Below are positions 7,873 through 19,516 of a DNA stretch of 64,000 bases, piece by piece. The translations under genes were made by a program, and so were the position numbers. Numbering within the stretch: position 1 is the stretch's first letter; every line of letters starts with the position of its first letter. Below the pieces are notes generated by a model. It saw only the letters and a list, made by a program, of their open reading frames with translations. It had not been told where the DNA came from and did not search any database. This DNA is from Candidatus Omnitrophota bacterium (GTDB lineage: Bacteria; Omnitrophota; Gorgyraeia; Pluralincolimonadales; Pluralincolimonadaceae). The stretch is from the NCBI GenBank assembly GCA_003141835.1, contig PLNR01000006.1, forward strand, positions 142,558 to 206,557, given 5' to 3'.

Positions 7873-8313
7873 TTATTTTTTCCTTAATGTCCTTAGAGCC
7901 CATACGATGAAACGGATCAGCAATAATACCAGGTAAACGATGAGGACTTTTAAAACAAAGAATTTGCCGAAAAATGAGATGAATAATTTATACCAATAAA
8001 CCGCCGTGGAATTAACATAACGCGATCCTTTTAAACCGGATTTAATATGAGCCGTATCCGTAAATTCCTTTATCCGTTTTTCAATAAGTTTTGGCGGCGG
8101 GTTAAGGGCGTCTTCAATGACCTCATTAGAATTATAACCATTGCGGATCTCCGGATATACCTTTATTGTGTATGTTTCCCCGTTAAGGAACTCCAATTTA
8201 TACTTTGGGAATACAACGGGTATTTCGGGGAGGAAGTGCAGGACCGCATATAATACAATGGCTAATCCTATAACTATCAGCCCTTCTTTTGCTATTATTT
8301 TATTGATATTCAT
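7873..8313 (-). CDS. hypothetical membrane protein
   Basis: 146-aa ORF with two hydrophobic segments. AT-rich gene. Confidence 0.35.
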   Translation of the reverse strand: MNINKIIAKEGLIVIGLAIVLYAVLHFLPEIPVVFPKYKLEFLNGETYTIKVYPEIRNGYNSNEVIEDALNPPPKLIEKRIKEFTDTAHIKSGLKGSRYVNSTAVYWYKLFISFFGKFFVLKVLIVYLVLLLIRFIVWALRTLRKK

Positions 8314-8315
8314 TC

Positions 8316-8669
8316 CTATCTATCCACGGGATTATTTACGCTCTCGGTGCTTACGCTGCCTCCATCCGGGCCGTCAGGGTTGTTGACGCTTCCCTCGGCG
8401 GGCGAGTCGATATGCTTTCCCACGGGTTCGGTAGTCGGTTCCGGCGGGAGCGTATTGTCACCTGATTTGCCGATATCCTTATTGTCTTTATTCTCTATTA
8501 CCGGATTATCCGTAGCTTCCGGAGTATCTGCAGTTTCAGGATTATCGACGTTTTCTTGTGTTCCCGGATTATCGTTGGTGGTATCTGAATATTCACCTTC
8601 CGCGTAAGCGCAGCAAGTTGCAAATAACACGATCCCGATCAAGCTGATGAATAATTTTCTAATCTTCAT
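8316..8669 (-). CDS. secreted acidic low-complexity protein with (D/N)NP repeats
   Basis: Signal peptide then NDNPGT, VDNPET, TDNPVI, VNNPDG, VNNPVD. Confidence 0.4.
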   Translation of the reverse strand: MKIRKLFISLIGIVLFATCCAYAEGEYSDTTNDNPGTQENVDNPETADTPEATDNPVIENKDNKDIGKSGDNTLPPEPTTEPVGKHIDSPAEGSVNNPDGPDGGSVSTESVNNPVDR

Positions 8670-8679
8670 TCCCTCTCCT

Positions 8680-9192
8680 TTATGGATGGAATCCTATCTT
8701 CTTCTTTGGCTTTTCTTCCGGCGGCGCCATTAATTCATCAATAAGCTGGTAAATCGTTGTAATATGTCGACCATGTTCTCCAAGTATTTTACCATGTTCT
8801 TTTACCTGTTGCGCAAGTTCTTTATTTTCAGCTAACATTTCTCTTAACCTAACAAATACTCGCATTATTATGATATTTACCCGAATTGCTCTATCACTAT
8901 TTAAAACGCTCGAGAGCATAGCAACCCCTTGCTCTGTAAAAGCATTGAAATTGTATCTTCTGCCGCCCCATCTTGAGGTCGCAAATTGCGACCTCAAGTT
9001 CGTAACTTCTTGTCTTGTAAGAAGAAACATGAAATCAGCTGGAAATCTCTTTAGATTCCTTTTAACTTGTTCATTCGGCCTCTTCGTTGATACTCCGTAC
9101 AGCTGTGCAAGATCTTTATCAAACATCACCTTTTTACCCCTGATAATAAAGATCTTCTGCCGCACAACATCCTGCTCAACCAGATTTGACAT
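8680..9192 (-). CDS. ORF6N-domain DNA-binding protein (antirepressor-related)
   Basis: N-terminal IRGKKVMFDKDLAQLYGVSTKRPNEQVKRNLKRFPADFMF...RWGGRRYNFNAFTEQGVAMLSSVL matches the ORF6N/KilA-N-like family. RBS AAGGAGGG 6 nt upstream. Confidence 0.6.
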   Translation of the reverse strand: MSNLVEQDVVRQKIFIIRGKKVMFDKDLAQLYGVSTKRPNEQVKRNLKRFPADFMFLLTRQEVTNLRSQFATSRWGGRRYNFNAFTEQGVAMLSSVLNSDRAIRVNIIIMRVFVRLREMLAENKELAQQVKEHGKILGEHGRHITTIYQLIDELMAPPEEKPKKKIGFHP

Positions 9193-9199
9193 AAAAAAT

Positions 9200-9250
9200 C
9201 CCTCCTTTAGCTGTATAGACGCTAAAAGGAGGGATTTTCTTTCAACTATT
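9200..9250. repeat. about 50-bp hairpin repeat, copy A (hairpin with TATAGACG loop plus 18-bp tail GATTTTCTTTCAACTATT)
   Basis: The tail 9233-9250 is identical to 17693-17710, and the loop TATAGACGC is shared. On the minus strand it reads as stem-loop plus T-run plus RBS. It overlaps the SIMPL stop codon. Confidence 0.6.
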
Positions 9251-9998
9251 CCGTTATCGCAAAATCCGCATGGACGACCGCGAAGACCTTCTTCTCGAGC
9301 GATGAGGTGTCGTTACTGCCCCAGTCCGAGACCTCGGTCGAATTGACCGGCGTTATCTGGAAGACGCCCATATCCGCCGAGCGTATCCTGCCGACCTTGT
9401 TGCCGGACGCCGAGGCGATCCGTTCGGCCCGTTTCTTCGCGTCCGCGGAGGCCGCGCCGAGCATCTCGAGCTTCAGCTCGGCCAGCTTGGTGTAAAAATA
9501 CTGCGGCGGGTACGAAACGAACCGTATATCCTGCTCGATGAGCCCGGTCGATTCGCGCGACACGGCGGTTATCTTGGCGACGTCAGCCGAGCGCACTTCT
9601 ATCACCTGGCTGAGGTCGTAGGCCTCGATCTCGTTGGTGGCGATGCCCTTCTCGTTCTTCTTGTAGATGACTGTCGTCACCACCTGCGAAACGATCATCT
9701 CGCCCTCGGTTATCCCCTTGGACGCGAGGTAAGCCCTGACCTTGGCCGTGTCCTCTTTTAATTTGGCGAACGCGTCCTTCATCTGTGGGTCCCGCGCCGA
9801 GAACTCGGCCGTCCAGACCGCGTAATCCGATGTTATCCTCTTCTCGGCGGAGCCGGTTACGTTTATCACCTCGGCCGAGGCCTTCTTGAACTTCACCATC
9901 CCGTTGGTCAATATCACCGCGGAACCGATCGCCGCCACTACAAAACATATCCCCAAGATCACTATCTGCGCATTACGCAGGAAACCGTACTTCTCCAT
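9246..9998 (-). CDS. SIMPL-domain (DUF541) periplasmic protein
   Basis: 250 aa, N-terminal TM/signal segment, overall SIMPL-like architecture. Confidence 0.55.
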   Translation of the reverse strand: MEKYGFLRNAQIVILGICFVVAAIGSAVILTNGMVKFKKASAEVINVTGSAEKRITSDYAVWTAEFSARDPQMKDAFAKLKEDTAKVRAYLASKGITEGEMIVSQVVTTVIYKKNEKGIATNEIEAYDLSQVIEVRSADVAKITAVSRESTGLIEQDIRFVSYPPQYFYTKLAELKLEMLGAASADAKKRAERIASASGNKVGRIRSADMGVFQITPVNSTEVSDWGSNDTSSLEKKVFAVVHADFAITE

Positions 9999-10070
9999 CT
10001 CTCTCCCCTTTACATCTTTTTATTCCCGTTTTATCTTTACCGCTTGCCCGGCATCATTGTTTGATCTTCA

Positions 10071-10421
10071 TCACCTCCCCCATGCTATACCGGTGCAAAC
10101 AAAATCACGCAATCTTATATTCTCTTTTACAGGCACAGCCTCAAGTTTAATAGTAAAACCGACATAACGCAAGACCTTTTCCAGCGTCTCCATACTGCTG
10201 AATTCACCATTCTCGATCTTCGATATATGTTGTTGGGTAACACTGATCTTCTTCGCCAGTTGTCCCTGCGTGAGTTTGTGGTCGATGCGGTAGCGGATGA
10301 TGGGTATAACAATCTTTAATTTTTGCTGGCTTATCTCCCACCGCTTCCTGAAATCCGGATTTTTCTTCAGCTCCTCGATATGCTCATTAACACTCATTCC
10401 TAAATGAATATTTCTTTTCAT
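10071..10421 (-). CDS. HTH XRE-family antitoxin (HigA-like)
   Basis: LTQGQLAKKISVTQQHISKIENGE helix-turn-helix. Overlaps the upstream toxin gene by 4 nt. Confidence 0.65.
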   Translation of the reverse strand: MKRNIHLGMSVNEHIEELKKNPDFRKRWEISQQKLKIVIPIIRYRIDHKLTQGQLAKKISVTQQHISKIENGEFSSMETLEKVLRYVGFTIKLEAVPVKENIRLRDFVCTGIAWGR

Positions 10422-10816
10422 ATTCCCTCCCTTTGGCTACTAATAGATATCTTACGTCTTTGTCTGGCCAATGAAATTTCTTTAAGTGGCATTTTTGCGC
10501 TCTTCTTGACAAACGCGTTTGTCATAATGGCTCTGTTCTCCCAAAAGAAATATAATATTCTGATTGTGCCAGCTTCGCTTTGAAATCTTAATTCGAATAT
10601 ATCATCGCCGATATATTTTGAATACGGTTGTTTTAACTCCCTTCCTAATTCTTCGAGCAATCTTTGAATATAAGCAAATTTATCCTGTGTTTTTGATTCA
10701 AACGACTCTATGAATTCCTTTACCGGCATCCTTCCTGAACTTAAACTGTAATAGAAACAGTTAAATCTTCCCACTCTCGCCTCCTTAACTTTACAACCAT
10801 TTAGTTGTATTGTCAA
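10418..10816 (-). CDS. RelE/ParE-superfamily toxin (HigB / Gp49-like). True start possibly the internal Met (MPVKEF...).
   Basis: IFELRFQSEAGTIRILYFFWENRAIMTNAFVKKSAKMPLKEISLARQR matches addiction-module killer proteins. It sits upstream of the XRE antitoxin. Confidence 0.6.
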   Translation of the reverse strand: MTIQLNGCKVKEARVGRFNCFYYSLSSGRMPVKEFIESFESKTQDKFAYIQRLLEELGRELKQPYSKYIGDDIFELRFQSEAGTIRILYFFWENRAIMTNAFVKKSAKMPLKEISLARQRRKISISSQREGI

Positions 10817-10908
10817 TACGTCTTTTTACTGCCCTTATTGTAATAGACGTATAAAGAAGGCATTTTCTTTCAAAATTATTTTTATAAGGGCGTGGATGGA
10901 GGACTGCC

Positions 10909-12120
10909 CTAAACTTGGTATTCTTCGCCGTCAGTTAGGATTTTGACGTTCTGGAATAGTTTGGGATATCTCTCGGCTTCAAAGGTATGGATGGGGATAA
11001 GGACGCGGGGATTAAGGGCCTTGGCGAAGGCCTGGAGGTCCTCGATGATAGCGTGGCCGCTGGTATGTACCGGCTCGATTATCAGACCCTCGCGCTCACA
11101 ATATGCTTTGAATTCATCGGTCAGATATCCCTGCCACATCGAATAAATTATCTTGGCGCCGCGCGCGCCATCGAGTTCCTTCACCGCGATCGGGAAAAAG
11201 GAATTATCGCGCGCCAGCATAAGTATCCTGTTTTTCATGCGGGCGATCTCGAATAGATCGATCTTTCGCTTGTTATAGACAAAAAGCAAATCCCTGTACC
11301 CGGCGCTTTCTAAACATTTGGCATGGTACCCAAGGAATTTTACCCTGATATTCTTCCAATTAAACTGCGGTATATTTTTAGACACCTTTCTCAGCTTATC
11401 CAATATAAACGCGGTATAAAGGTCTATCACGAATACCGAATCCGTCTTCAAGCATGCCCTGTAAGCCGAAACGATCCTGTCGATGTTCTGGGACGAGGCA
11501 AATAGAAAGGTGATCTCCTTCCTCTCTTCCAATATCCGGGCGATCCGCGCCTCGACCTCTTTCTCGTCTTTATACTCCTGCGCGCCCCTGCCGAGCATCG
11601 AGCCCTCCATTATCAGGCAATCAATATCCTTCGGCGGGGCTTCTAACATCATCTTGAATAACGCGCTCTTCCTCCCGTGGCCGCGGAAATCGCCGGAATA
11701 GAATATCCTCTTGCCTTCGCCCTCCACAAGGAAAGTAAGCGCGTCAAACGCGGAATGGTCGACCTGATACGGCGTCACCGTCATGTCCCCAACGACAAAA
11801 GGCTTTTTTGGCTTTACGATGCGCGTGTTTATCTTGCCGGTCTTGTTCGGCGTGAATATATTGGACACCTCTATCAGCTCTTTTGCCCCCTGGCTCATAT
11901 AAACGGGGATATCCGGATGGATGTGGCCCAGCAAGCCATAATGGTCCATGTGGGAATGTGAGATAAGTACGGCATCCGGGAGGATTTTGGGATAGGATGG
12001 CTTTTCGATCTCTTCGTCCAGCGGCTGGCCGAAATCTATCAGGAGCCGCGTTTTATCTGTCTTTAACTCGACGCAGCTACCGCCGATTTCCTGAGTGCCG
12101 CGGTGGATTGTTACTTGCAC
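10909..12120 (-). CDS. MBL-fold metallo-hydrolase (possible nuclease)
   Basis: HSHMDHYG metallo-beta-lactamase motif near the N-terminus, 403 aa. Start overlaps the upstream gene by 1 nt. Confidence 0.65.
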   Translation of the reverse strand: MQVTIHRGTQEIGGSCVELKTDKTRLLIDFGQPLDEEIEKPSYPKILPDAVLISHSHMDHYGLLGHIHPDIPVYMSQGAKELIEVSNIFTPNKTGKINTRIVKPKKPFVVGDMTVTPYQVDHSAFDALTFLVEGEGKRIFYSGDFRGHGRKSALFKMMLEAPPKDIDCLIMEGSMLGRGAQEYKDEKEVEARIARILEERKEITFLFASSQNIDRIVSAYRACLKTDSVFVIDLYTAFILDKLRKVSKNIPQFNWKNIRVKFLGYHAKCLESAGYRDLLFVYNKRKIDLFEIARMKNRILMLARDNSFFPIAVKELDGARGAKIIYSMWQGYLTDEFKAYCEREGLIIEPVHTSGHAIIEDLQAFAKALNPRVLIPIHTFEAERYPKLFQNVKILTDGEEYQV

Positions 12121-12965
12121 TATTTAATCCTGCTAAAATCAATCTCGTTTTTTATATGTAATATTTTTATCTCGGGATGCTTTTTCTTAAGCCCATTTAT
12201 GCTCTGCTCAGCCAAACCTGAATACCCCCCAACGACAACAATTCCCAAAACACCTTCGACAATATCGATCTCCAAACCGTCTGGCAACAGCCCGAGTCCC
12301 CGCTTCTGTAATGCATTCTTTACGTAACACTCCTTATACTGCTGAAAGTTCTTTGTAATACGCTCAATATAGCCGCTAAGTTGCGTAAAGACCTCTTCCT
12401 TCAATTCCAAATTATTTCCCAGCTTAACTTCCAAGACGCAGAACTGATATTTGCCTGCATTATTCCTCTTGAGCGCAAGAAGATCCATCTTAGTAGAGCT
12501 GTCCCGGTCAACAACCTGCCGGTCGATTATTATCAAATCATCTCTGTTAGAATTGTCGGTCAAGATCATTTGCTCGAAAACGATCTCCTCTTGAAACTGA
12601 ACTTCTTTAACCTTTTGTCCCATCAATAATAAATTTCTCGTGCTAAAAAAGGAATGCAATTTCTTATGCCCAACGGTGAATAAATAGTACTCCTTCTCCA
12701 TAGCGTTCTTGAACCGTTTAACCGCAGGGCCCATACCTTCTACAAATTTACGATGGATTCTGATTTCGTACAGATTTTTTGACTTACGGTAGGATATTTT
12801 CCCAAGGCTGTTGCCTTTATAATAAAGATTTAGGTAATCGTCGCGTATCTGCAAACCATACTCAAAACCAGATTGCTTGATCTTATTAATCAAGAAGTCG
12901 AAATCCCTCTTCACGGCCTCGTATGTTTCCTGAGATAGATATCGGCTTATAACTTTATTTTTCAT
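12120..12965 (-). CDS. hypothetical protein with PD-(D/E)XK-like signature (candidate nuclease)
   Basis: 281 aa, AT-rich. MDLLAL...CVLEVK fits a D-x(n)-E-x-K pattern. Unrelated to anything I recognise. Confidence 0.4.
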   Translation of the reverse strand: MKNKVISRYLSQETYEAVKRDFDFLINKIKQSGFEYGLQIRDDYLNLYYKGNSLGKISYRKSKNLYEIRIHRKFVEGMGPAVKRFKNAMEKEYYLFTVGHKKLHSFFSTRNLLLMGQKVKEVQFQEEIVFEQMILTDNSNRDDLIIIDRQVVDRDSSTKMDLLALKRNNAGKYQFCVLEVKLGNNLELKEEVFTQLSGYIERITKNFQQYKECYVKNALQKRGLGLLPDGLEIDIVEGVLGIVVVGGYSGLAEQSINGLKKKHPEIKILHIKNEIDFSRIK

Positions 12966-12992
12966 TTTAGGTTTCCTGCGAACCTTTTATTT

Positions 12993-13053
12993 GGGGACAC
13001 TCTGCAGCCTGTCCCTTTTTGACACGCCCCTATTACCTACTATTACCTATTAC
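12993..13053. repeat. island repeat unit U1 (GGGGACAC...TGTCCCTTTTTGACACGCCCC plus TATTACC tandem)
   Basis: Shares the core GGGGMSKTKTCAAAAAGGGACA (reverse orientation) with U2, U3 and the helicase-gene element. It sits between the Dam-like MTase stop and the 281-aa gene start. Confidence 0.5.
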
Positions 13054-13101
13054 TTCTTCGTGATTTTGCCTTTTTTACGCCCATAAAATAGCAACCTTAG
13101 G

Positions 13102-13989
13102 TTATACAAATAATGTAAAACAATGTTTATTTTTGATTTTGGGTAAGATACAATTCTCGCTGGATATTAATAATTCCTTACCGATGCTAGCTTTATGAAT
13201 AGAATATCTTATTTTAAGATTATTCCGCTGAACGCCTTTGTAAATATTCTTAATAAATGCTATGTTATCATATGAAAGAACCCATTTTAGATCGCTATTT
13301 TCTTTCAAATAATTGCTTAGTCTTTCGTGTTCTTGGGCCTCCATGTAATATTTATATAAATCTCTTCCCTTTTGATAATACGGAGGATCCAAATATATTA
13401 AATAATTTGATTTATCAGGACTTTTTAACGCTAAGTAAGTTTTTAAAAAATCGACTCCATCCTTATTAAATAGCTCAATTTTACTTTTATATTTTGATAT
13501 CAGTTCGATTCTTTTAATTAAATTTATTTTATTAAACCTTGCGTCAATCTTCCATTCGCCATCCTGCTTCATGCCACCTACTGGACCTGACGATAGTATT
13601 CCAGAACGGTTGCAACGATTTAGATAGAAGCTAGCAAACCCAACATCAATATCTGAACCATGTTTTATAAATTCTTTGTCCTTCAATAAATCTCTTTGTA
13701 TTTTCCACTCGCTAATTTTAACAGGTGTAGAAATTACGCGCGCAATAAAACCATCTGTTTGATTTAAAACTGCTTTCCAGAATTTATATATTCGTTCATC
13801 CAAATCGTTAAGTACGATTTTGTCAACGAACCCTTTCGTCAACAAATTTAAAGCTGCGCCAGCTCCTCCAGCAAAAGGTTCAATATACGCTACGTTGACT
13901 AATTCATTGCTTTGGATCACTTTATTTAAATATTTCCACAAAGCTGTTTTTCCGCCGGGGTATCTCAAGGGACTTATATGATTATCCAT
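13102..13989 (-). CDS. DNA adenine methyltransferase, Dam-like (alpha class)
   Basis: EPFAGGAGAALN (motif I) near the N-terminus and YLDPPYY (motif IV, DPPY) in the C-terminal half. AT-rich. Confidence 0.8.
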   Translation of the reverse strand: MDNHISPLRYPGGKTALWKYLNKVIQSNELVNVAYIEPFAGGAGAALNLLTKGFVDKIVLNDLDERIYKFWKAVLNQTDGFIARVISTPVKISEWKIQRDLLKDKEFIKHGSDIDVGFASFYLNRCNRSGILSSGPVGGMKQDGEWKIDARFNKINLIKRIELISKYKSKIELFNKDGVDFLKTYLALKSPDKSNYLIYLDPPYYQKGRDLYKYYMEAQEHERLSNYLKENSDLKWVLSYDNIAFIKNIYKGVQRNNLKIRYSIHKASIGKELLISSENCILPKIKNKHCFTLFV

Positions 13990-15374
13990 TATTCGTTCTT
14001 TTTTAGAACATGTCTCAAATATTCAGATAATTTTTTCCACTTATCTGAAAGCACTGTTCTGTCAGGTATATAACTAGCGTTATGTACGAAAGAGTTCAAA
14101 TCGTCCAATATTGGTTCTTTTCCTTTAAAATCGACATATTTTTTAAGCGCTTTCTTAATTTGCGGATCCATCGCTATATCATTTTCACTAAGCCAAAGTA
14201 GCATTCCCTTAAGTGAGGGCCACGTATCTGGTAAACTTTTCCCGCTTTTTAACTTAGTTTCATCGCGGTTTTTATATTTTTTTAATTCCCCGCTTCTCTC
14301 CATGTAAATATACGTGCCCAATTCTACTAATAGTCTAAAAGTTACCGCATGGGCATTTGGATATGTTTTAGGGTTGAGCCCGTGCAGTTCTCTAAATATA
14401 TCTTTGATTCGCTCATTATTGATTTCACATATAATCGCATCTGGGATAATCGACTTAAACTGAAGTGTTTTAGGTATTTGGTTTTTTATGGCGGATTTTT
14501 TGAAATCTCCAGGATTTGAAAGATAATCTTCTATTGCATCTGCTGTACTTAAATTTCTTGAATTGACTTCTTTATTGGCAATATCCTCAACAATCTGTTT
14601 TAACTTTATATCAGTCTTTTTCTCATTTTCTATAAACTCAATATTTCCATTATCGTTGTAAGTAACTTTTAGATAATCTTTACCTGGCTTGCTTTGAACA
14701 ACTCTATCTAGGGTAGTAAATTCAAATTTTTCTTTTTCGTTTCCGTTTTCTAGACTTAATAATTGATCTTTAATTTTTTTCGAAATAGGTAGTTTGTGTG
14801 CTCTCTGAATGAAGTTGTAACTTACAATTAATTTTTTTATTTTATTAGCTTTGACACCAACGGATAGCGATAAATTATTGATTGTTTCTCCATCTCTAAT
14901 ACGCCGGTAATAAAATATGGCTTGATTTATCGGCAGCCACTTTTTAATAGGTATTTCTGTATGTCTACCTGCAATAATATAATCAGCATCTTTCCTGCTT
15001 GGAGCAAGTACCCCGTTTATTTTTTTAATACTACCTGATTTAGCATTTTTTGCAATTGCCTTAAATCGTTTTTGGTACTTATCAGGTGCGATGCTGGGAT
15101 TCAAAAGAAGCTTGCATGCTGCAAGCCGCCTATTTCCTTCTAATACATATAGTTTTCCTTCTATATCACAAACTATTATAACCTCTGTTGGTAAAAAACC
15201 TCTTTCTGCTATTCTTAACGATAGATCTATAATATTCTCATATTTAATTAGCTCTTCAAGAATGTTTTCTTCTGATAACTCTTCTAAATTAGCAAATCGC
15301 GGGTTTTCAGGGTCTAGTAACAAATTCTCTACATCATACTTATCTATCTTCCAATCCGAATAATTTGTTGGCAT
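13989..15374 (-). CDS. ParB N-terminal (ParB/Srx nuclease-like) domain protein, 461 aa
   Basis: LYVLEGNRRLAACKLLLN matches the ParB GxRR box. Long lysine-rich C-terminal region of unknown function. Its stop overlaps the MTase start (13989). Confidence 0.6.
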   Translation of the reverse strand: MPTNYSDWKIDKYDVENLLLDPENPRFANLEELSEENILEELIKYENIIDLSLRIAERGFLPTEVIIVCDIEGKLYVLEGNRRLAACKLLLNPSIAPDKYQKRFKAIAKNAKSGSIKKINGVLAPSRKDADYIIAGRHTEIPIKKWLPINQAIFYYRRIRDGETINNLSLSVGVKANKIKKLIVSYNFIQRAHKLPISKKIKDQLLSLENGNEKEKFEFTTLDRVVQSKPGKDYLKVTYNDNGNIEFIENEKKTDIKLKQIVEDIANKEVNSRNLSTADAIEDYLSNPGDFKKSAIKNQIPKTLQFKSIIPDAIICEINNERIKDIFRELHGLNPKTYPNAHAVTFRLLVELGTYIYMERSGELKKYKNRDETKLKSGKSLPDTWPSLKGMLLWLSENDIAMDPQIKKALKKYVDFKGKEPILDDLNSFVHNASYIPDRTVLSDKWKKLSEYLRHVLKKNE

Positions 15375-15427
15375 TTAAACCTCCTCAAGTAATAAAATAT
15401 CTTCCGCCCTTATTTGAAATTTAACTA

Positions 15428-15500
15428 GGGGGACGCATACCTTATGACACTGTGCAACCTGTCCCTTTTTGAAGAGTCCTCTATTCTACTTCTATTATTT
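15428..15500. repeat. island repeat unit U2
   Basis: GACACTGTGCAACCTGTCCCTTTTTGAAGAG...CTATTCTACTTCTATTATTT is collinear with U1. Confidence 0.45.
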
Positions 15501-15514
15501 GCTATGGGAACTTC

Positions 15515-15575
15515 GGGGACGTGTCATTTTGGGGCACCCTGCAATCTATTTCTTTTTGACACGTCACTAATATTT
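15515..15575. repeat. island repeat unit U3 (bounded by 9-bp inverted repeat GACGTGTCA / TGACACGTC)
   Basis: GGGGACGTGTCATTTTGGGGCACCCTGCAATCTATTTCTTTTTGACACGTCAC. Confidence 0.45.
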
Positions 15576-15619
15576 TGAATTGATCTGCTCAGAGCTTATC
15601 TAGATTGGAGTATTAGTAA

Positions 15620-16561
15620 TCAAATGCCTTTCAAAAGCTTAGAAAATCCTGCGGTATTAACGAAATAATTGCTCTTATTCTTTTTAAGATATTTATATAT
15701 ATCTTTTTTTGCTTTTGACATCTTATTGTCTGTTGATGCTTCAATTAGTTCGTTAAACATAATTCCATCCAAAAATGCTACATACGAAACATTTTTGTCT
15801 GTGTATTTCAATAAATCCACTATTTCTACAATTGCACCGTATTGCCCTCCACCGCCACCTTTTTTATGTTTATGCTCAACAACATACATATTAGGCCCTT
15901 TTTGAATATAACAATCTGGCATCTTACCTTGTTTTGATTTACTCCATTCAAATTTAATATTACGTTTGTTACAAATGTCTTTAAAATATTTTTTCTCTCC
16001 TTTATCAGGCAATAAATAAAACGAATCCTTTTTGATATCATCGCTTCTTTTATATCTTTTGAAACCTTCCCGCTCAACAAGCATAATAATCTTATTTGCT
16101 CCTGTTGAGCCCCCTCTTTTATGCGAATAATTGTCAGATAGTACTTGTAAAACAATATTAGAATATCCATGAGATGAATACATCGAATGCCTATCCTTAA
16201 TATATTTAATTAACAATTCCCGTAGTAATTTTTTTCTTTCTTGTTCTTTTTCGGCACGCAGTACAGAATATGGCATATCCCATACCATTAAATATTGCGA
16301 GAATGCCGTATAATTCATATGATGTATTTTGAATAATATTGAATCAATCTCCCTGATAATTTCATCATCCTGCTTCTTGGTGAGCTTACCATCCAAAGTA
16401 TGGTACGTTGTTATTAGATCAATTAACCTTTCATTGCTATTAATAATCTTGTTTTTATCTTTTGCGTTTTTCGTTATTACAATAATTTCTTTTTTATTAG
16501 CATCATCAAAAATCTGCTCTCTATTCTTTAACGAGTATTCGAATAAGAGGATGTTGTCCAT
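15620..16561 (-). CDS. hypothetical protein; candidate restriction endonuclease partner of the adjacent MTase
   Basis: 313 aa, AT-rich, no recognisable motifs. Overlaps the upstream NPPY methyltransferase gene by 34 nt. Confidence 0.35.
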   Translation of the reverse strand: MDNILLFEYSLKNREQIFDDANKKEIIVITKNAKDKNKIINSNERLIDLITTYHTLDGKLTKKQDDEIIREIDSILFKIHHMNYTAFSQYLMVWDMPYSVLRAEKEQERKKLLRELLIKYIKDRHSMYSSHGYSNIVLQVLSDNYSHKRGGSTGANKIIMLVEREGFKRYKRSDDIKKDSFYLLPDKGEKKYFKDICNKRNIKFEWSKSKQGKMPDCYIQKGPNMYVVEHKHKKGGGGGQYGAIVEIVDLLKYTDKNVSYVAFLDGIMFNELIEASTDNKMSKAKKDIYKYLKKNKSNYFVNTAGFSKLLKGI

Positions 16562-17613
16562 AATAATTCTTCTCCATAAATATTATTATACGCATTTTCG
16601 AGTATGGCCCTTGCAGTTTCATAATCTAGGCGCCTTCTTCTGCAACCATTTTTCATATTTCCTTTAAAGGGCGACAAAAGCACATCATTCGTTTTGTCTC
16701 TATAATCTGTAAGAATGTTATTGCATTTCTCCAAAAACAATTCTAGCTTATCATGCTTTAATTTATCCAATTTAATTATTGTTATTAGCCTAGAGCTTAT
16801 CTTAATCCCCTTTAAATCATAATCAAGTTCTTCCTTTTTCATGAATTTTATCATGGATTTAGGATTTGTTGTGTCGACCGCTCTTAAGGCAATATTTCCA
16901 CTAGTATCATTAAAAAATATCCTAAGGTATTTTGCGGGCCTTAATCTCAATTTTTCATAATAGTCCAGATTATTTAAATATTTATCATTTTTATACACCT
17001 TGATTTCCGAATATTCTTTTGCTCTGCCATCAAAGCAAAGAACACATACCGGCGTCTCTGTATCATCAAAACAATTTTCTTCTATTATAGTAATCGAATT
17101 TAATCGATATTTATGCTTAAAATTACTATTTATGAAAGTCTCTGGAACAATTGCTACAACGTATTCTTGCGCTTGCAGCATTTTTTCAAGTGCAATTAAA
17201 TATAAATCGCCATATTCAGAACTAATAAAATAATTTTCAGTACTATCATAGATACCTTTTCTTTTAGCACTATAATTACTTAGGTAGGGCGGATTTGTAA
17301 TTATTATGGCATTTTTTCTTGTGGGAATTTTTAATAAACTATCATTCACTGGGAAATTCTTTTTAGAGTCTATGTCCAAACCAAACGCTTTGGTAATTCC
17401 GAAATTATCGGAGAGTTTTAACAAATCGCCGTCTCCAGCATATGGATCATAAATCTCACTACAACCGCTGGATATCACGAATTCTTTAATATGAGTTTTT
17501 AGCCATTTATCTTTTTTAGTAAAATATTGTCCTAATATTTTTTGGTTCATATAATGCCTCTGACAATATTGCGTTTTTTCGTCTCTAACATGGACTTTTA
17601 TCTCGCTTGTCAT
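16528..17613 (-). CDS. N6-adenine (or N4-cytosine) DNA methyltransferase, gamma-class order (motif I then NPPY)
   Basis: DPYAGDGDLL (SAM-binding) followed about 40 residues later by IIITNPPY. Confidence 0.7.
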   Translation of the reverse strand: MTSEIKVHVRDEKTQYCQRHYMNQKILGQYFTKKDKWLKTHIKEFVISSGCSEIYDPYAGDGDLLKLSDNFGITKAFGLDIDSKKNFPVNDSLLKIPTRKNAIIITNPPYLSNYSAKRKGIYDSTENYFISSEYGDLYLIALEKMLQAQEYVVAIVPETFINSNFKHKYRLNSITIIEENCFDDTETPVCVLCFDGRAKEYSEIKVYKNDKYLNNLDYYEKLRLRPAKYLRIFFNDTSGNIALRAVDTTNPKSMIKFMKKEELDYDLKGIKISSRLITIIKLDKLKHDKLELFLEKCNNILTDYRDKTNDVLLSPFKGNMKNGCRRRRLDYETARAILENAYNNIYGEELLWTTSSYSNTR

Positions 17614-17661
17614 GTGTATTTTAACACCTCCCTATTCATGCGTCAATGCAAGGTTTCTTTG

Positions 17662-17710
17662 CTTCCTTACCTATATAGACGCAAGTTAGGAAGATTTTCT
17701 TTCAACTATT
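17662..17710. repeat. about 50-bp hairpin repeat, copy B (partner of 9200-9250)
   Basis: CTTCCTTACCTATATAGACGCAAGTTAGGAAGATTTTCTTTCAACTATT. Identical 18-bp tail and TATAGACGC loop. Confidence 0.6.
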
Positions 17711-17764
17711 TTTTAGAGTTTCCCCTATAACTCCTCACCTTTCATCGGCGTTGCACTCGGGTCC

Positions 17765-17992
17765 CTAATAATTAAAAATATCTTTAATAGCAAAATTATC
17801 TTCCGGCTTTAGCGCGCGAAGGGCATTCAGAATCTTATGTTGGATATTAAGGGTTAATCGCCTTCCCTTGCGCCCCTTTTGCACCATCTTATGCGACAAC
17901 TGCTCAGTGGAAATCTTAACAAGGTCAGAGTTTGAAAAACCTAGCCGCACCATGATCCTGTCAAGCGGCTGGATGCCTAATTCTTCCTTCAT
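17765..17992 (-). CDS. small hypothetical protein (75 aa), basic, possibly DNA-binding
   Basis: Its ATG overlaps the TGA of the upstream NYN gene (ATGA). Flanked by a roughly 30-bp direct repeat. Confidence 0.35.
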   Translation of the reverse strand: MKEELGIQPLDRIMVRLGFSNSDLVKISTEQLSHKMVQKGRKGRRLTLNIQHKILNALRALKPEDNFAIKDIFNY

Positions 17993-18360
17993 ATTTTACT
18001 CCAAAACTCCTCGCATTTCATCGGCGTTGCACGCGCATCCTTCGCATAAAAATACAGCGAGCGGTCGGAGGAGACGACACGCAGGTTGCGGCGCTGGCGC
18101 GGCGGGATCTGGTCGATGTGTTTCTTTATGTAAGAGTCGGCGTTCCGGGCCGCGACGATATGCAGTTTCGCCGTGCTCCTGTTCGGTATATCGAGATATT
18201 CATTCTTGCTGTCGAATACAAGGGTGATGGGGTCGGCGTGGGTCTCCTGGAACTTCTCCAGGATAGCGATCAGGTGCATGGCGCCGGCCAGGGCGTCGTC
18301 ATGATCTATCCCTGAGCCTTCGTGGCGGACCATGTTCCAACCGTCTATAAGTATAGGCAT
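17989..18360 (-). CDS. NYN/PIN-like (YacP-like) domain protein
   Basis: N-terminal ILIDGWNMV and acidic residues are typical of YacP/NYN nucleases. Confidence 0.5.
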   Translation of the reverse strand: MPILIDGWNMVRHEGSGIDHDDALAGAMHLIAILEKFQETHADPITLVFDSKNEYLDIPNRSTAKLHIVAARNADSYIKKHIDQIPPRQRRNLRVVSSDRSLYFYAKDARATPMKCEEFWSKI

Positions 18361-18373
18361 GGCTCCCTAGCAC

Positions 18374-19516
18374 CTAAACCTTTTCGTGGCTAAATTGGCG
18401 CAGATAATCACTGTACATAAACTTGCGATTGCGCTCTTTTCCGGTTATTTCATATAATATGTCTGCCTTAACAAACTTTTCTATCAACTGAAGGATATTC
18501 GCTTTAGAGGATATTCCGGTAATCCGCGAGGCAATCCCTGAATCTACTATAGGGGTTGAATATAGTTTGTTTAACAGTTTTAAGGCTGTTGCGGAATTTC
18601 TGCCCATGCCGGAAACCTTCCTGATGTGCTCCTCCCTTAATTTTGTGATCTTTTGGGCAGTTATCACGGCTTCCTCAGAAACTTCGCGTACGCCTACAAG
18701 AAAATATTTTAGCCAATCTTCTATACCTTTATTAAACCTATATCCGTTTAATTTATCGTAATAATTTGTACGGTGTTTTTTAAAATACTCCGAAATATAC
18801 AAAAGTGGCCGGGACAGCACCTGTTCTTTGTAAAGATAAAAAGTAATCAAGAGTCTCCCCATCCTTCCGTTACCGTCAAGGAACGGATGGATGGTTTCAA
18901 ATTGAGCGTGTATAATGCCGGCTTTTATTAAAGGCGGAAGTTTCGTGGTTTCATCGTGCAAGAACTTTTCCAGATCAGACAAAGATTCATGCATTTGGTG
19001 AGCGGGCGGAGGAACAAAAAAAGCTGTTTCTATAGTAGGGCCTCCTATCCAATTTTGGGAAGTCCTGAATTCCCCCGGATTTCTGTGCTGCCCACGCACT
19101 CCTTTAAGCAAGGCGGAATGCATTTCTCTTATCAAACGCCAGGAGAGAGGAAAGGTCTTTAGCCTTTCTATGCCATGATCCATTGCGGTTATGTAGTTTT
19201 TTATCTCATCGACATCCGAAGGGGAATCCTTATCCTTTAGTTTCGCCTCCGCTTTTATGTAATCGATGAATGTCGCCTGAGTACCTTCTATCTGGCTTGA
19301 TAACGCGGCTTCTTTCGTAACGTACATGTAGATAAAGAAATTAACGTCGGGGACAAGCTGGTCTATGGCATTGAGACTACCTATAGCGCGATCTGCCTTT
19401 GAGAGAAGCATGATTAAATTGTCATCCCAGTTTATGAGATGCTCAGGTGGAAATTTTGCCGGTATAAACGCCTTGTAACCTGTAGGTTGCTGTTGATAAA
19501 AACCTATTTTTCCCAT
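18374..19516 (-). CDS. Fic family protein (probable AMPylase) with C-terminal winged-helix
   Basis: Canonical Fic motif HPFLDGNGRMGR within a 380-aa ORF. Confidence 0.85.
   Translation of the reverse strand: MGKIGFYQQQPTGYKAFIPAKFPPEHLINWDDNLIMLLSKADRAIGSLNAIDQLVPDVNFFIYMYVTKEAALSSQIEGTQATFIDYIKAEAKLKDKDSPSDVDEIKNYITAMDHGIERLKTFPLSWRLIREMHSALLKGVRGQHRNPGEFRTSQNWIGGPTIETAFFVPPPAHQMHESLSDLEKFLHDETTKLPPLIKAGIIHAQFETIHPFLDGNGRMGRLLITFYLYKEQVLSRPLLYISEYFKKHRTNYYDKLNGYRFNKGIEDWLKYFLVGVREVSEEAVITAQKITKLREEHIRKVSGMGRNSATALKLLNKLYSTPIVDSGIASRITGISSKANILQLIEKFVKADILYEITGKERNRKFMYSDYLRQFSHEKV

Follow-up and report, generated by a model that had tools for sequence, protein, structure and literature searches.

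A candidate two-nuclease defence module of PD-(D/E)XK and beta-CASP type in a Candidatus Omnitrophota bacterium

What do two putative nuclease genes that share a nucleotide do in the middle of a bacterial defence island? The question is raised by a 64,000-nucleotide (nt) stretch of a Candidatus Omnitrophota genome (GenBank assembly GCA_003141835.1, contig PLNR01000006.1, positions 142,558 to 206,557 of the forward strand; this whole stretch is hereafter "the window"), in which a gene for a 281-amino-acid (aa) protein, here called the partner, overlaps a gene for a 403-aa protein of the metallo-beta-lactamase (MBL) fold. A preliminary description of the window had suggested a two-component nuclease system. 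Two nuclease folds, intact active sites and a conserved linkage of the two genes bear out much of that suggestion, and we infer from genomics and predicted structure that the two proteins also cooperate. The likeliest reading is that the pair constitutes an uncharacterised two-nuclease system acting against phages or plasmids, and we would give it about an even chance of being right.

The overlapping genes and the folds of their products

Both genes lie on the minus strand (Table 1). The plus-strand letters "cacta" at 12118-12122 read TAGTG on the minus strand, and base 12120 belongs both to the TAG stop of the partner gene and to the GTG start of the MBL gene (12120-12118), as had been noted earlier. 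The GTG start is credible because (i) the start column (MxLIIHRGTxEIGGS) is identical in 40/40 aligned MBL homologues, (ii) the next in-frame methionine of the open reading frame (ORF) is residue 58, and a start there would lose metal-binding motifs, and (iii) an AGGA sequence lies 7 nt upstream. In related loci, which we designate by L numbers, the overlaps of the two genes are -1, -4, -11, -13 and -17 nt. An overlap of 1 or 4 nt is ordinary within operons; the significant part is that the adjacency is kept across phyla. Expression of the pair is probably operonic and translationally coupled, and "probable translational coupling" is better wording than the co-translation that the overlap had been said to imply. 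No sigma-70-like promoter or terminator was called in the intergenic region 5' of the partner gene, where scan counts stood at the level of shuffled sequence and were uninformative; this region, which holds a decamer repeat, is not conserved in L009, with which DNA homology stops at 12953.

Sequence and structure searches both placed the 403-aa protein among beta-CASP enzymes. Pfam returned Lactamase_B_2 (2e-17) and RMMBL (6e-5); the best NCBIfam models were RNase J (2e-14), Cas14 beta-CASP and aCPSF1, all matched far below their cutoffs; and among PDB sequences EF2904 (2az4) came first, followed by archaeal CPSF (aCPSF) and RNase J. Across 41 family members, no variation occurs in the MBL motifs D29, H55-S-H57-M-D59-H60 (nt 11958-11941), H122 and D144, confirming the HxHxDH motif of the preliminary description, or in the beta-CASP motifs A (E172), B (H352-T-S-G-H356-A) and C (H378); the two-metal site is complete. 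The AlphaFold2 (AF2) model (mean predicted local distance difference test, pLDDT, 84.8) superposes end to end on RNase J, CPSF73 and EF2904, with template-modelling (TM) scores of 0.67-0.78. With Foldseek it matched EF2904 at an E value of 7.7e-23 (TM 0.73) and bacterial and archaeal RNase J at about 1e-20 (TM 0.70-0.78), while matches to CPSF73 and IntS11 had weaker E values and lower TM. On sequence and model together, we assign the protein as a predicted beta-CASP nuclease of the EF2904/RNase J type, rather than a generic lactamase; among the types considered earlier, the motif C histidine favours the RNase J-like state and speaks against an Artemis/SNM1-like one.

The segment VHTSGHA...LIPIHT of this protein aligns with IHVSGHA...FLPVHG of H. 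pylori RNase J. In RNase J structures the HxSGHA motif forms the 5'-monophosphate pocket, and it would presumably do so in the window's protein. The classical beta-CASP rule, reportedly formulated by Callebaut and co-workers in 2002, is said to equate a histidine in motif C with the RNA-type state; the window's protein has this histidine, and RNA is therefore as plausible a substrate as DNA.

The closest relative of known structure is EF2904 of Enterococcus faecalis, the best match both in sequence (5e-17 with the protein, 7.7e-30 with the family profile) and in fold. It is 429 aa long, compared with 403 aa for the window's protein and about 430 aa for most relatives, and has the same motif set, including the glutamate of motif A and the xSGHA...PIHT signature, but is only about 20% identical. 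RNase J likewise shares the two-domain MBL plus beta-CASP fold, HxHxDH, and a motif B/C signature (H-x-S-G-H-A ... P-[IV]-H) that aligns residue for residue in the H. pylori enzyme. By its sequence, however, the window's protein is not an RNase J orthologue, because it misses the cutoffs of both RNase J models, TIGR00649 and NF047419 (52.9 bits vs 400, 43.8 vs 820), and because its chain ends at residue 403, right after motif C, lacking the C-terminal dimerisation domain of about 100 aa. RNase J chains run to 550-570 aa, and normalised by target length the TM score is 0.53-0.56. Moreover, RNase J is a core gene, whereas the MBL family described here is mobile and patchy. Annotations in that family, which has >6,500 cluster-level matches, go no further than "MBL fold metallo-hydrolase" or "ribonuclease J".

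Two other identities were considered and rejected. For a metabolic MBL hydrolase (glyoxalase II, arylsulfatase, PhnP, RNase Z or beta-lactamase), NCBIfam matches were weak and partial (1e-8 to 1e-3), and the fold search returned beta-CASP end to end. For an Apyc1-type cyclic-nucleotide phosphodiesterase, the PF23023 match was "faint" and that to NCBIfam cyc_nuc_deg was 0.0019, reflecting the common MBL core; Apyc1-type enzymes are not known to carry a beta-CASP insertion. Neither an end-to-end alignment with a metabolic hydrolase nor a partner devoid of a nuclease fold, the outcome that the preliminary description had named as speaking against it, was found.

Immune effectors with related folds are known from two settings. 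In type VII CRISPR, the effector Cas14 is of beta-CASP type, and the window's protein has a weak N-terminal match to NCBIfam cas14_MBL_CASP (1.3e-13, 50 bits); the cutoff is 800 bits, however, Cas14 has 612 aa, and no Cas5/Cas7 gene or CRISPR array lies near the pair. In the trypsin-MBL modules (HamM, Avs2, Lamassu), an MBL-fold nuclease effector is encoded beside a partner gene, as in the window. There a ComEC-like MBL protein without beta-CASP is activated by an adjacent fused trypsin-like protease (PMC12799240), whereas the window's pair has no protease gene beside it and its MBL protein is of beta-CASP type. In the published literature, we found no beta-CASP or RNase J-like defence enzyme described apart from Cas14, and no description of the pair or of the function of EF2904.

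The partner had been called an ORFan, which proved wrong: its homologues number 685 when clustered at 90% identity and 291 when clustered at 50%. Pfam, NCBIfam and PHROGs nevertheless gave no match, nor did PDB sequences at E<=10, even with a 73-sequence family profile, and the sole profile match was PADLOC PDC-S18 (1.4e-4, residues 118-203, 85 residues). The AF2 model has two domains (pLDDT 92, predicted TM score 0.89). In the first, residues about 30-120 resemble the C-terminal DNA-binding "double-wing" domain of T4 MotA (5jlt/1kaf, Foldseek probability 0.97-0.98) and YdhG/DUF1801 proteins (9t2w/2oc6, 0.96-0.99); YjbR was also matched, and the BFVD matches were MotA and Alc. This domain is predicted, on the model, to bind nucleic acid or to act as a sensor.

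The second domain has the core topology alpha-beta-beta-beta-alpha-beta in the model (helices 126-137 and 191-205; strands 144-151, 160-167, 173-182 and 235-246). With the whole chain, the best Foldseek matches were EndoMS/NucS (5gkj, 9.3e-4), Can2, Card1, BstEII and the Cas4-family ACE1 (E 9e-4 to 0.3), and BFVD returned HamA and PD-(D/E)XK proteins. D161, E179 and K181 are invariant in 41 relatives of the partner. Across 73 deep representatives (25-56% identity), D161 and G51 are invariant, E179, K181, E127 and E131 are conserved in at least 90%, and N138, D148-R-Q150, Q195 and Y199 are likewise invariant or conserved in at least 90%. The D...ExK pattern noticed earlier ("MDLLAL...CVLEVK") is thus a real active site, with D161 on strand beta-2, E179 and K181 on beta-3 and the acidic E127 and E131 on helix 1 of the model, and the residues E / D / ExK / QxxxY make up a complete set of the RecB/Cas4 kind. 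The alignments indicate that both active sites, that of the partner and that of the MBL protein, are under purifying selection.

Among known proteins, NucS/EndoMS has the same layout, with DNA binding in the N-terminal and PD-(D/E)XK in the C-terminal domain, and gave the top whole-chain match; the TM score, however, is only 0.20-0.24, the window's partner has no sequence-profile match to it, and the partner's N-terminal domain resembles the MotA C-terminal domain and YdhG, not the N-terminal domain of NucS. A 300-aa partner type found in L052 has a faint NucS_C Pfam match (0.024). In Hachiman (HamA + HamB) and Shedu (SduA), too, a regulatory or sensing domain precedes a PD-(D/E)XK nuclease, in compact, methylation-independent modules of defence islands, and a HamA-domain protein in BFVD is a weak whole-length structural match to the partner (probability 0.87). 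Neither protein of the pair, however, has a Pfam or PADLOC match to HamA (DUF1837) or, at E<=0.1, to Shedu DUF4263/SduA, and no helicase (HamB) adjoins the pair in the window or in related loci, the second component being the beta-CASP nuclease.

Some partner homologues (designated by P or L numbers) carry additional segments. An N-terminal extension of ~205-225 aa, without a Pfam match, is 25-47% identical in three clusters, and a C-terminal extension is common to P0248 and P0253 (50% identity over 131 aa); fused examples include L042 4358-5035, P0243, P0301 and P0303. Such extensions may be extra sensor or regulatory domains. In P0281 a partner is fused to the C-terminus of an MBL protein, but this is one isolated prediction that is truncated at its N-terminus, and we placed no weight on it.

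Conserved linkage and exchange of the partner

Linkage of the two genes was examined from both sides. Starting from the partner, we scanned 185,579 species genomes with a sequence pattern and obtained 34 loci in at least 12 phyla, including Omnitrophota, Margulisiibacteriota, Bacteroidota, Planctomycetota, Desulfobacterota, Nitrospirota, Gemmatimonadota, Actinomycetota, Chloroflexota, Verrucomicrobiota and Latescibacterota, as well as a cultured Clostridium. In 32 of these loci the flank was present and the linkage could be tested. The MBL gene adjoins the partner in 22/32, and three further loci (L018, L019, L022) have MBL remnants only, beside intact partners. The usual order is partner then MBL, with an overlap of 1-17 nt; the reverse order occurs in three loci and a divergent arrangement in one. 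The partner stands alone in seven loci, and in two of these a different nuclease gene comes after it, in L031 (HNH) and in L041 (RNase T-like exonuclease).

On the MBL side, we looked up five metagenomic MBL proteins at 61-93% identity to the window's and five plasmid homologues at 32-37%. All ten have a neighbouring gene of 255-320 aa, including cases of inverted gene order, and homology of the neighbour to the partner was supported in six: by the partner hidden Markov model in L043 (1.9e-28), L047 (1.9e-106), L053 and L054 (about 1e-13 to 7e-11) and L055 (5.4e-11), and by hhalign in L045 (probability 92%). The neighbours in L007, L052, L056 and L057 show just a D...ExK motif and weak HSDR_N, NucS_C or PDDEXK_9 matches, and hhalign of the L007 neighbour against the partner gave no support (probability 0.2%). 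Pairwise identities of partner and MBL proteins correlate across 20 loci (r = 0.50, Mantel p about 0.001). The co-occurrence that the preliminary description had proposed as a check is therefore strong, spanning those phyla and several gene orders, and because the linkage persists where the sequences have diverged almost completely, where the gene order is inverted and where the genes have moved between phyla, we regard it as strong evidence of functional dependence.

The window's own pair has a composite ancestry. Its MBL gene is 91% identical in nucleotide sequence to that of L052, but only across 10908-12109, and the gene upstream in L052 encodes the different, 300-aa partner type; with L043 the identity is 78.6% across 10963-12119. 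Conversely, the segment 12029-12953, which takes in the partner gene and 90 nt at the start of the MBL gene, is 80% identical to L009. The proteins agree, with three loci that are outliers to the correlation: relative to the window, the MBL protein is 74% and the partner 22% identical in L043, the values are 69% and 41% in L036, and in L009 the partner is 83% and the MBL protein about 56-60% identical. GC content is 0.50 for the MBL gene, 0.39 for the partner, 0.32 for the neighbouring PD-Lambda-5 genes and 0.31-0.35 for the island, the backbone being about 0.53. Because the nucleotide homologies to L052, L043 and L009 break cleanly at the junction, and GC differs accordingly, the window's pair is a recombinant, whose two cassettes meet within a highly conserved stretch, the 5' end of the MBL gene. 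In a conflict system, an effector served by a specificity or sensor module would be expected to look like this: the enzyme is conserved, while its partner diverges fast and can be exchanged. The pair is a horizontally mobile, self-contained module.

Could the adjacency be incidental, two independent single-gene nucleases having become neighbours by chance in a crowded island? The different GC contents of the two genes (0.50 vs 0.39), joined by recent recombination, and the existence of partners on their own would fit. The same two families are adjacent, however, in dozens of unrelated contexts and phyla, which largely refutes this explanation; both gene orders occur, usually with overlapping reading frames, and the swap exchanged one partner type for another at the same position and made no new adjacency. 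We regard chance adjacency as extremely unlikely.

A housekeeping role in RNA processing or DNA repair, comparable to that of RNase J or of NucS acting together with an exonuclease, is suggested by the folds of the two proteins, which are like those of RNase J and NucS/EndoMS, and some of the loci do sit among housekeeping genes. Such a role is very unlikely in view of (i) the patchy distribution, with 34 loci in all the species genomes scanned, spread over so many phyla, (ii) the atypical GC of the two genes within their low-GC island, (iii) the cassette swapping and the pseudogenised copies, and (iv) the failure of the MBL protein to reach the RNase J cutoff and its lack of the RNase J C-terminal domain.

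Additional small genes accompany the pair at some loci. A DUF6508 protein (about 135 aa) adjoins the partner in four independent loci (L004 5591-6004, L015 and L038 7582-7986, L037 8874-9236), overlapping the partner start in three; it is absent from the window, and may be an optional third component. On alphaproteobacterial plasmids, a conserved small protein of 124-158 aa without a Pfam match accompanies MBL and partner (L053 4558-4953, L054 4516-4992, L055 6256-6630), in the order small-MBL-partner or partner-MBL-small; it is confined to the proteobacterial plasmid versions of the pair. A third conserved gene was sought and rejected, no family recurring more than two or three times among 137 neighbouring ORFs. 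An RNA component was rejected likewise: Rfam gave nothing at E<=1 for 8000-19000, tRNA genes were absent, and 10700-13200 held no meaningful repeat.

The defence island and other genomic settings

The pair sits in a mosaic island of low GC at about 6.7-19.5 kb of the window. That this is a defence island, as the preliminary description held, was confirmed by PD-Lambda-5 A and B, SoFic and the candidate PDC-S05 (Table 1). The PD-Lambda-5 genes overlap by 1 nt and form a complete system directly upstream of the pair. A role of the pair as a PD-Lambda-5 component was rejected, A and B being fully covered by these two genes; nor do PD-Lambda-5 genes flank the pair in any other annotated locus that we examined, with the reservation that L045 has, about 4 kb upstream, a fused ParB_N-methylase gene which the PADLOC comparison did not cover. 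On the 3' side of the MBL gene, the Gp49/HigB-like toxin and helix-turn-helix (HTH) antitoxin genes, together with DUF900, recur 3' of the MBL gene in L043, and the islands of the window and L043 are therefore related.

Other features of the island are noted for completeness. An Eco57I-type methylase gene and an overlapping 313-aa ORF, for which there was no Pfam or PADLOC match, occupy the part of the island with the lowest GC (0.31-0.33) and may be an unrecognised restriction-modification pair. GC returns to the backbone level at the gene for the 1044-aa AddA/RecB-like protein, which probably marks the chromosomal side of the island. A conserved non-coding element runs over the 3' end of the HTH antitoxin gene, stopping 17 nt 5' of a SIMPL gene. 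Its copies in L052 (643-738 and 4791-4882, 86-87% identity) flank a four-gene cassette that includes partner and MBL; its predicted RNA fold is modest (-23.1 kcal/mol, z = -2.4), with no Rfam match. It could be a leader or untranslated region, or a cassette-border repeat.

Table 1. Features of the window discussed in the text, with positions counted from its first nucleotide
Feature	Position	Strand	Evidence or remark
ORF6N protein	8680-9192	-	PADLOC candidate PDC-S05, 4.6e-58
Conserved non-coding element, ~95 nt	10015-10118	-	core GCGTGATTTTGTTTGCACCGG...GGAGGTGATGAAGA.CAAACAATGATGCCGGGCAAGCGGTAAAGATA
Gp49/HigB-like toxin (2e-23) and HTH antitoxin	10071-10816	-	4-nt overlap; immediately 3' of MBL gene
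Beta-CASP MBL-fold nuclease gene (predicted)	10909..12120	-	403 aa, GTG start; ORF listing
Recombination junction, partner cassette/MBL cassette	12029..12109	-	within conserved 5' end of MBL gene
Gene junction	12118..12131	-	AGGA Shine-Dalgarno 12131-12128, 7-nt spacer, TAGTG 12122-12118; read from sequence
Partner gene	12120..12965	-	281 aa, ATG start at 12965, TAG stop 12122-12120; ORF listing
Partner C-terminal PD-(D/E)XK domain	12123..12599	-	residues 123-281; AF2 topology and conserved residues
Partner key codons	D161 12485-12483, E179 12431-12429, K181 12425-12423	-	
Partner N-terminal alpha/beta domain	12600..12965	-	residues about 1-122; conserved "NLYYKGNS" hairpin (R41, Y48, G51)
Intergenic region, PD-Lambda-5 methyltransferase/partner	12966..13101	-	136 nt, probable Shine-Dalgarno CAGGAAAC; read from sequence
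Tandem decamer CTATTACCTA x2.4	13030-13053		in the 136-nt intergenic region 5' of partner
PD-Lambda-5_B, Dam-type D12 methyltransferase, 295 aa	13102-13989	-	PADLOC 2e-106
PD-Lambda-5_A, ParB-like, 461 aa	13989-15374	-	PADLOC 7e-55
Eco57I-type methylase protein, 361 aa (2.4e-6), overlapping 313-aa ORF	15620-17613	-	
SoFic, Fic/DOC protein	18374-19516	-	full-length match to SoFic model, 2.3e-117
UvrD-helicase/PD-(D/E)XK (AddA/RecB-like) protein, 1044 aa	19689-22823	-	

Elsewhere, the neighbours of the pair include Type I, IIG and ISP restriction-modification genes, OLD/AAA_15, RmuC, integrases, primase-polymerase (prim-pol), a WYL regulator and a large serine recombinase. Strong PADLOC matches among the 137 neighbouring ORFs comprised Dsr1, MADS, a CBASS cyclase and phospholipase, PD-Lambda-4, PDC-S02/S11, restriction-modification and AbiEi.

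Several of these settings bear on the possibility that the pair serves a mobile element, for example by processing DNA ends or recombining DNA when the element integrates, is excised or becomes established after conjugation, or through anti-defence. In L047-L049 (e.g., L047 3989-7915), a 59-aa MerR/excisionase-like HTH protein, the partner, the MBL protein and a 541-aa large serine recombinase are encoded in one overlapping run, and the upstream DNA differs between samples, so the pair there sits at the edge of an integrative element; in L004 it adjoins prim-pol and integrase genes, and MBL homologues occur on 12 plasmids, some near a MobF relaxase. A recombinase or relaxase is nearby in few loci, however, most having none, and defence systems are typical cargo beside integrases. 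A search (tblastn) of 50,697 phage genomes matched neither partner nor MBL, the partner scan of viral contigs found one in 2.9 million, and tblastn of the partner against plasmids found no match. With its fast diversification of the partner and its conserved effector, the pair has the signature of a conflict system, and we consider a mobile-element function unlikely.

Proposed division of labour and its bearing on bacterial immunity

If the pair is a defence system, its two nucleases might act in succession. The variable partner would recognise foreign nucleic acid via its MotA-like domain and cut it endonucleolytically, leaving a 5'-phosphate; PD-(D/E)XK enzymes leave 5'-phosphate ends. The conserved beta-CASP enzyme would then enter at the 5'-phosphate end and degrade 5'->3'. 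The partner would be the specificity module; it would diversify, and recombination within the conserved 5' end of the MBL gene would replace one version by another. We therefore offer, tentatively and with more doubt than conviction, the picture of a widespread but so far overlooked immune system in which a hypervariable, swappable PD-(D/E)XK sensor-endonuclease makes 5'-P entry sites for an RNase J-like exonuclease. Cooperation, a DNA or RNA substrate, the trigger and the defence phenotype are all matters on which we infer rather than observe.

The distribution of the two genes is asymmetric: solo partners exist, and no sampled MBL gene is without an adjoining partner-sized gene (10/10). This fits the hand-off from partner to MBL enzyme and a toxin-antitoxin-like arrangement equally. 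In such an abortive-infection module, the beta-CASP RNase would be a growth-arresting toxin and the upstream protein its neutraliser or regulator; freed on infection, the toxin would degrade cellular and phage RNA. The order of an upstream regulator and a downstream enzyme with a stop/start overlap would suit it, as would the RNA-type features of the MBL protein (motif C histidine, RMMBL match, RNase J signature) and the Gp49/HTH toxin-antitoxin pair that the genes adjoin, and partners found alone in 7/32 loci would resemble orphan antitoxins, orphan toxins not being tolerated. A mere inhibitor, however, needs no nuclease site, and that of the partner (E, D, ExK, QxxxY) is kept across 291 clusters. 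In addition, both proteins are large for toxin-antitoxin components, and the MBL remnants beside intact partners also fit the decay of an accessory gene. On balance we find this alternative rather doubtful.

A number of points weigh against the two-nuclease defence system itself. The solitary partners (7/32 loci) indicate that the MBL protein is not strictly needed by the partner. Assignment of the partner to the PD-(D/E)XK fold rests mainly on topology and a conserved motif, whole-chain Foldseek matches being weak (E 9e-4, probability 0.6, TM 0.2), and PADLOC v2 gave a convincing match for neither protein (none for MBL, the marginal PDC-S18 for the partner). Motif C histidine and RMMBL point to RNA, whereas most PD-(D/E)XK relatives cut DNA, and a common substrate is uncertain; the hand-off from endonuclease to exonuclease is purely conjectural. 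As to setting, the enrichment in defence islands is a rough estimate made without a control, and many neighbours at other loci are housekeeping genes (aconitase, enolase, riboflavin synthesis), the module therefore inserting widely.

Nuclease-based defence candidates already form a crowded class, within which we propose the pair as a compact candidate made up of an undescribed PD-(D/E)XK family and an uncharacterised beta-CASP clade. Homologous pairs occur in hosts that can be cultured, namely Butyrivibrio proteoclasticus B316 (pCY186; BPR_RS19060 and BPR_RS19055), Rhizobium phaseoli (pRphaN671a; AMC80_RS21365, RS21360 and RS21355), Ochrobactrum, Sphingomonas and Burkholderia sp. YI23, and the hypothesis is therefore directly testable. 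The partner represents a new PD-(D/E)XK family with a MotA-like N-terminal domain and without a Pfam model, and the conserved effector, swapped partner and mapped junction of the window offer a compact natural example of specificity-module exchange in conflict systems. If the defence reading is true, the pair would add a new effector class to bacterial immunity, as the first defence system to rely on an enzyme of the RNase J/EF2904 type. A large MBL family would then gain a functional context, and the 20-year-old structural-genomics orphan 2az4 (EF2904) within it a function.

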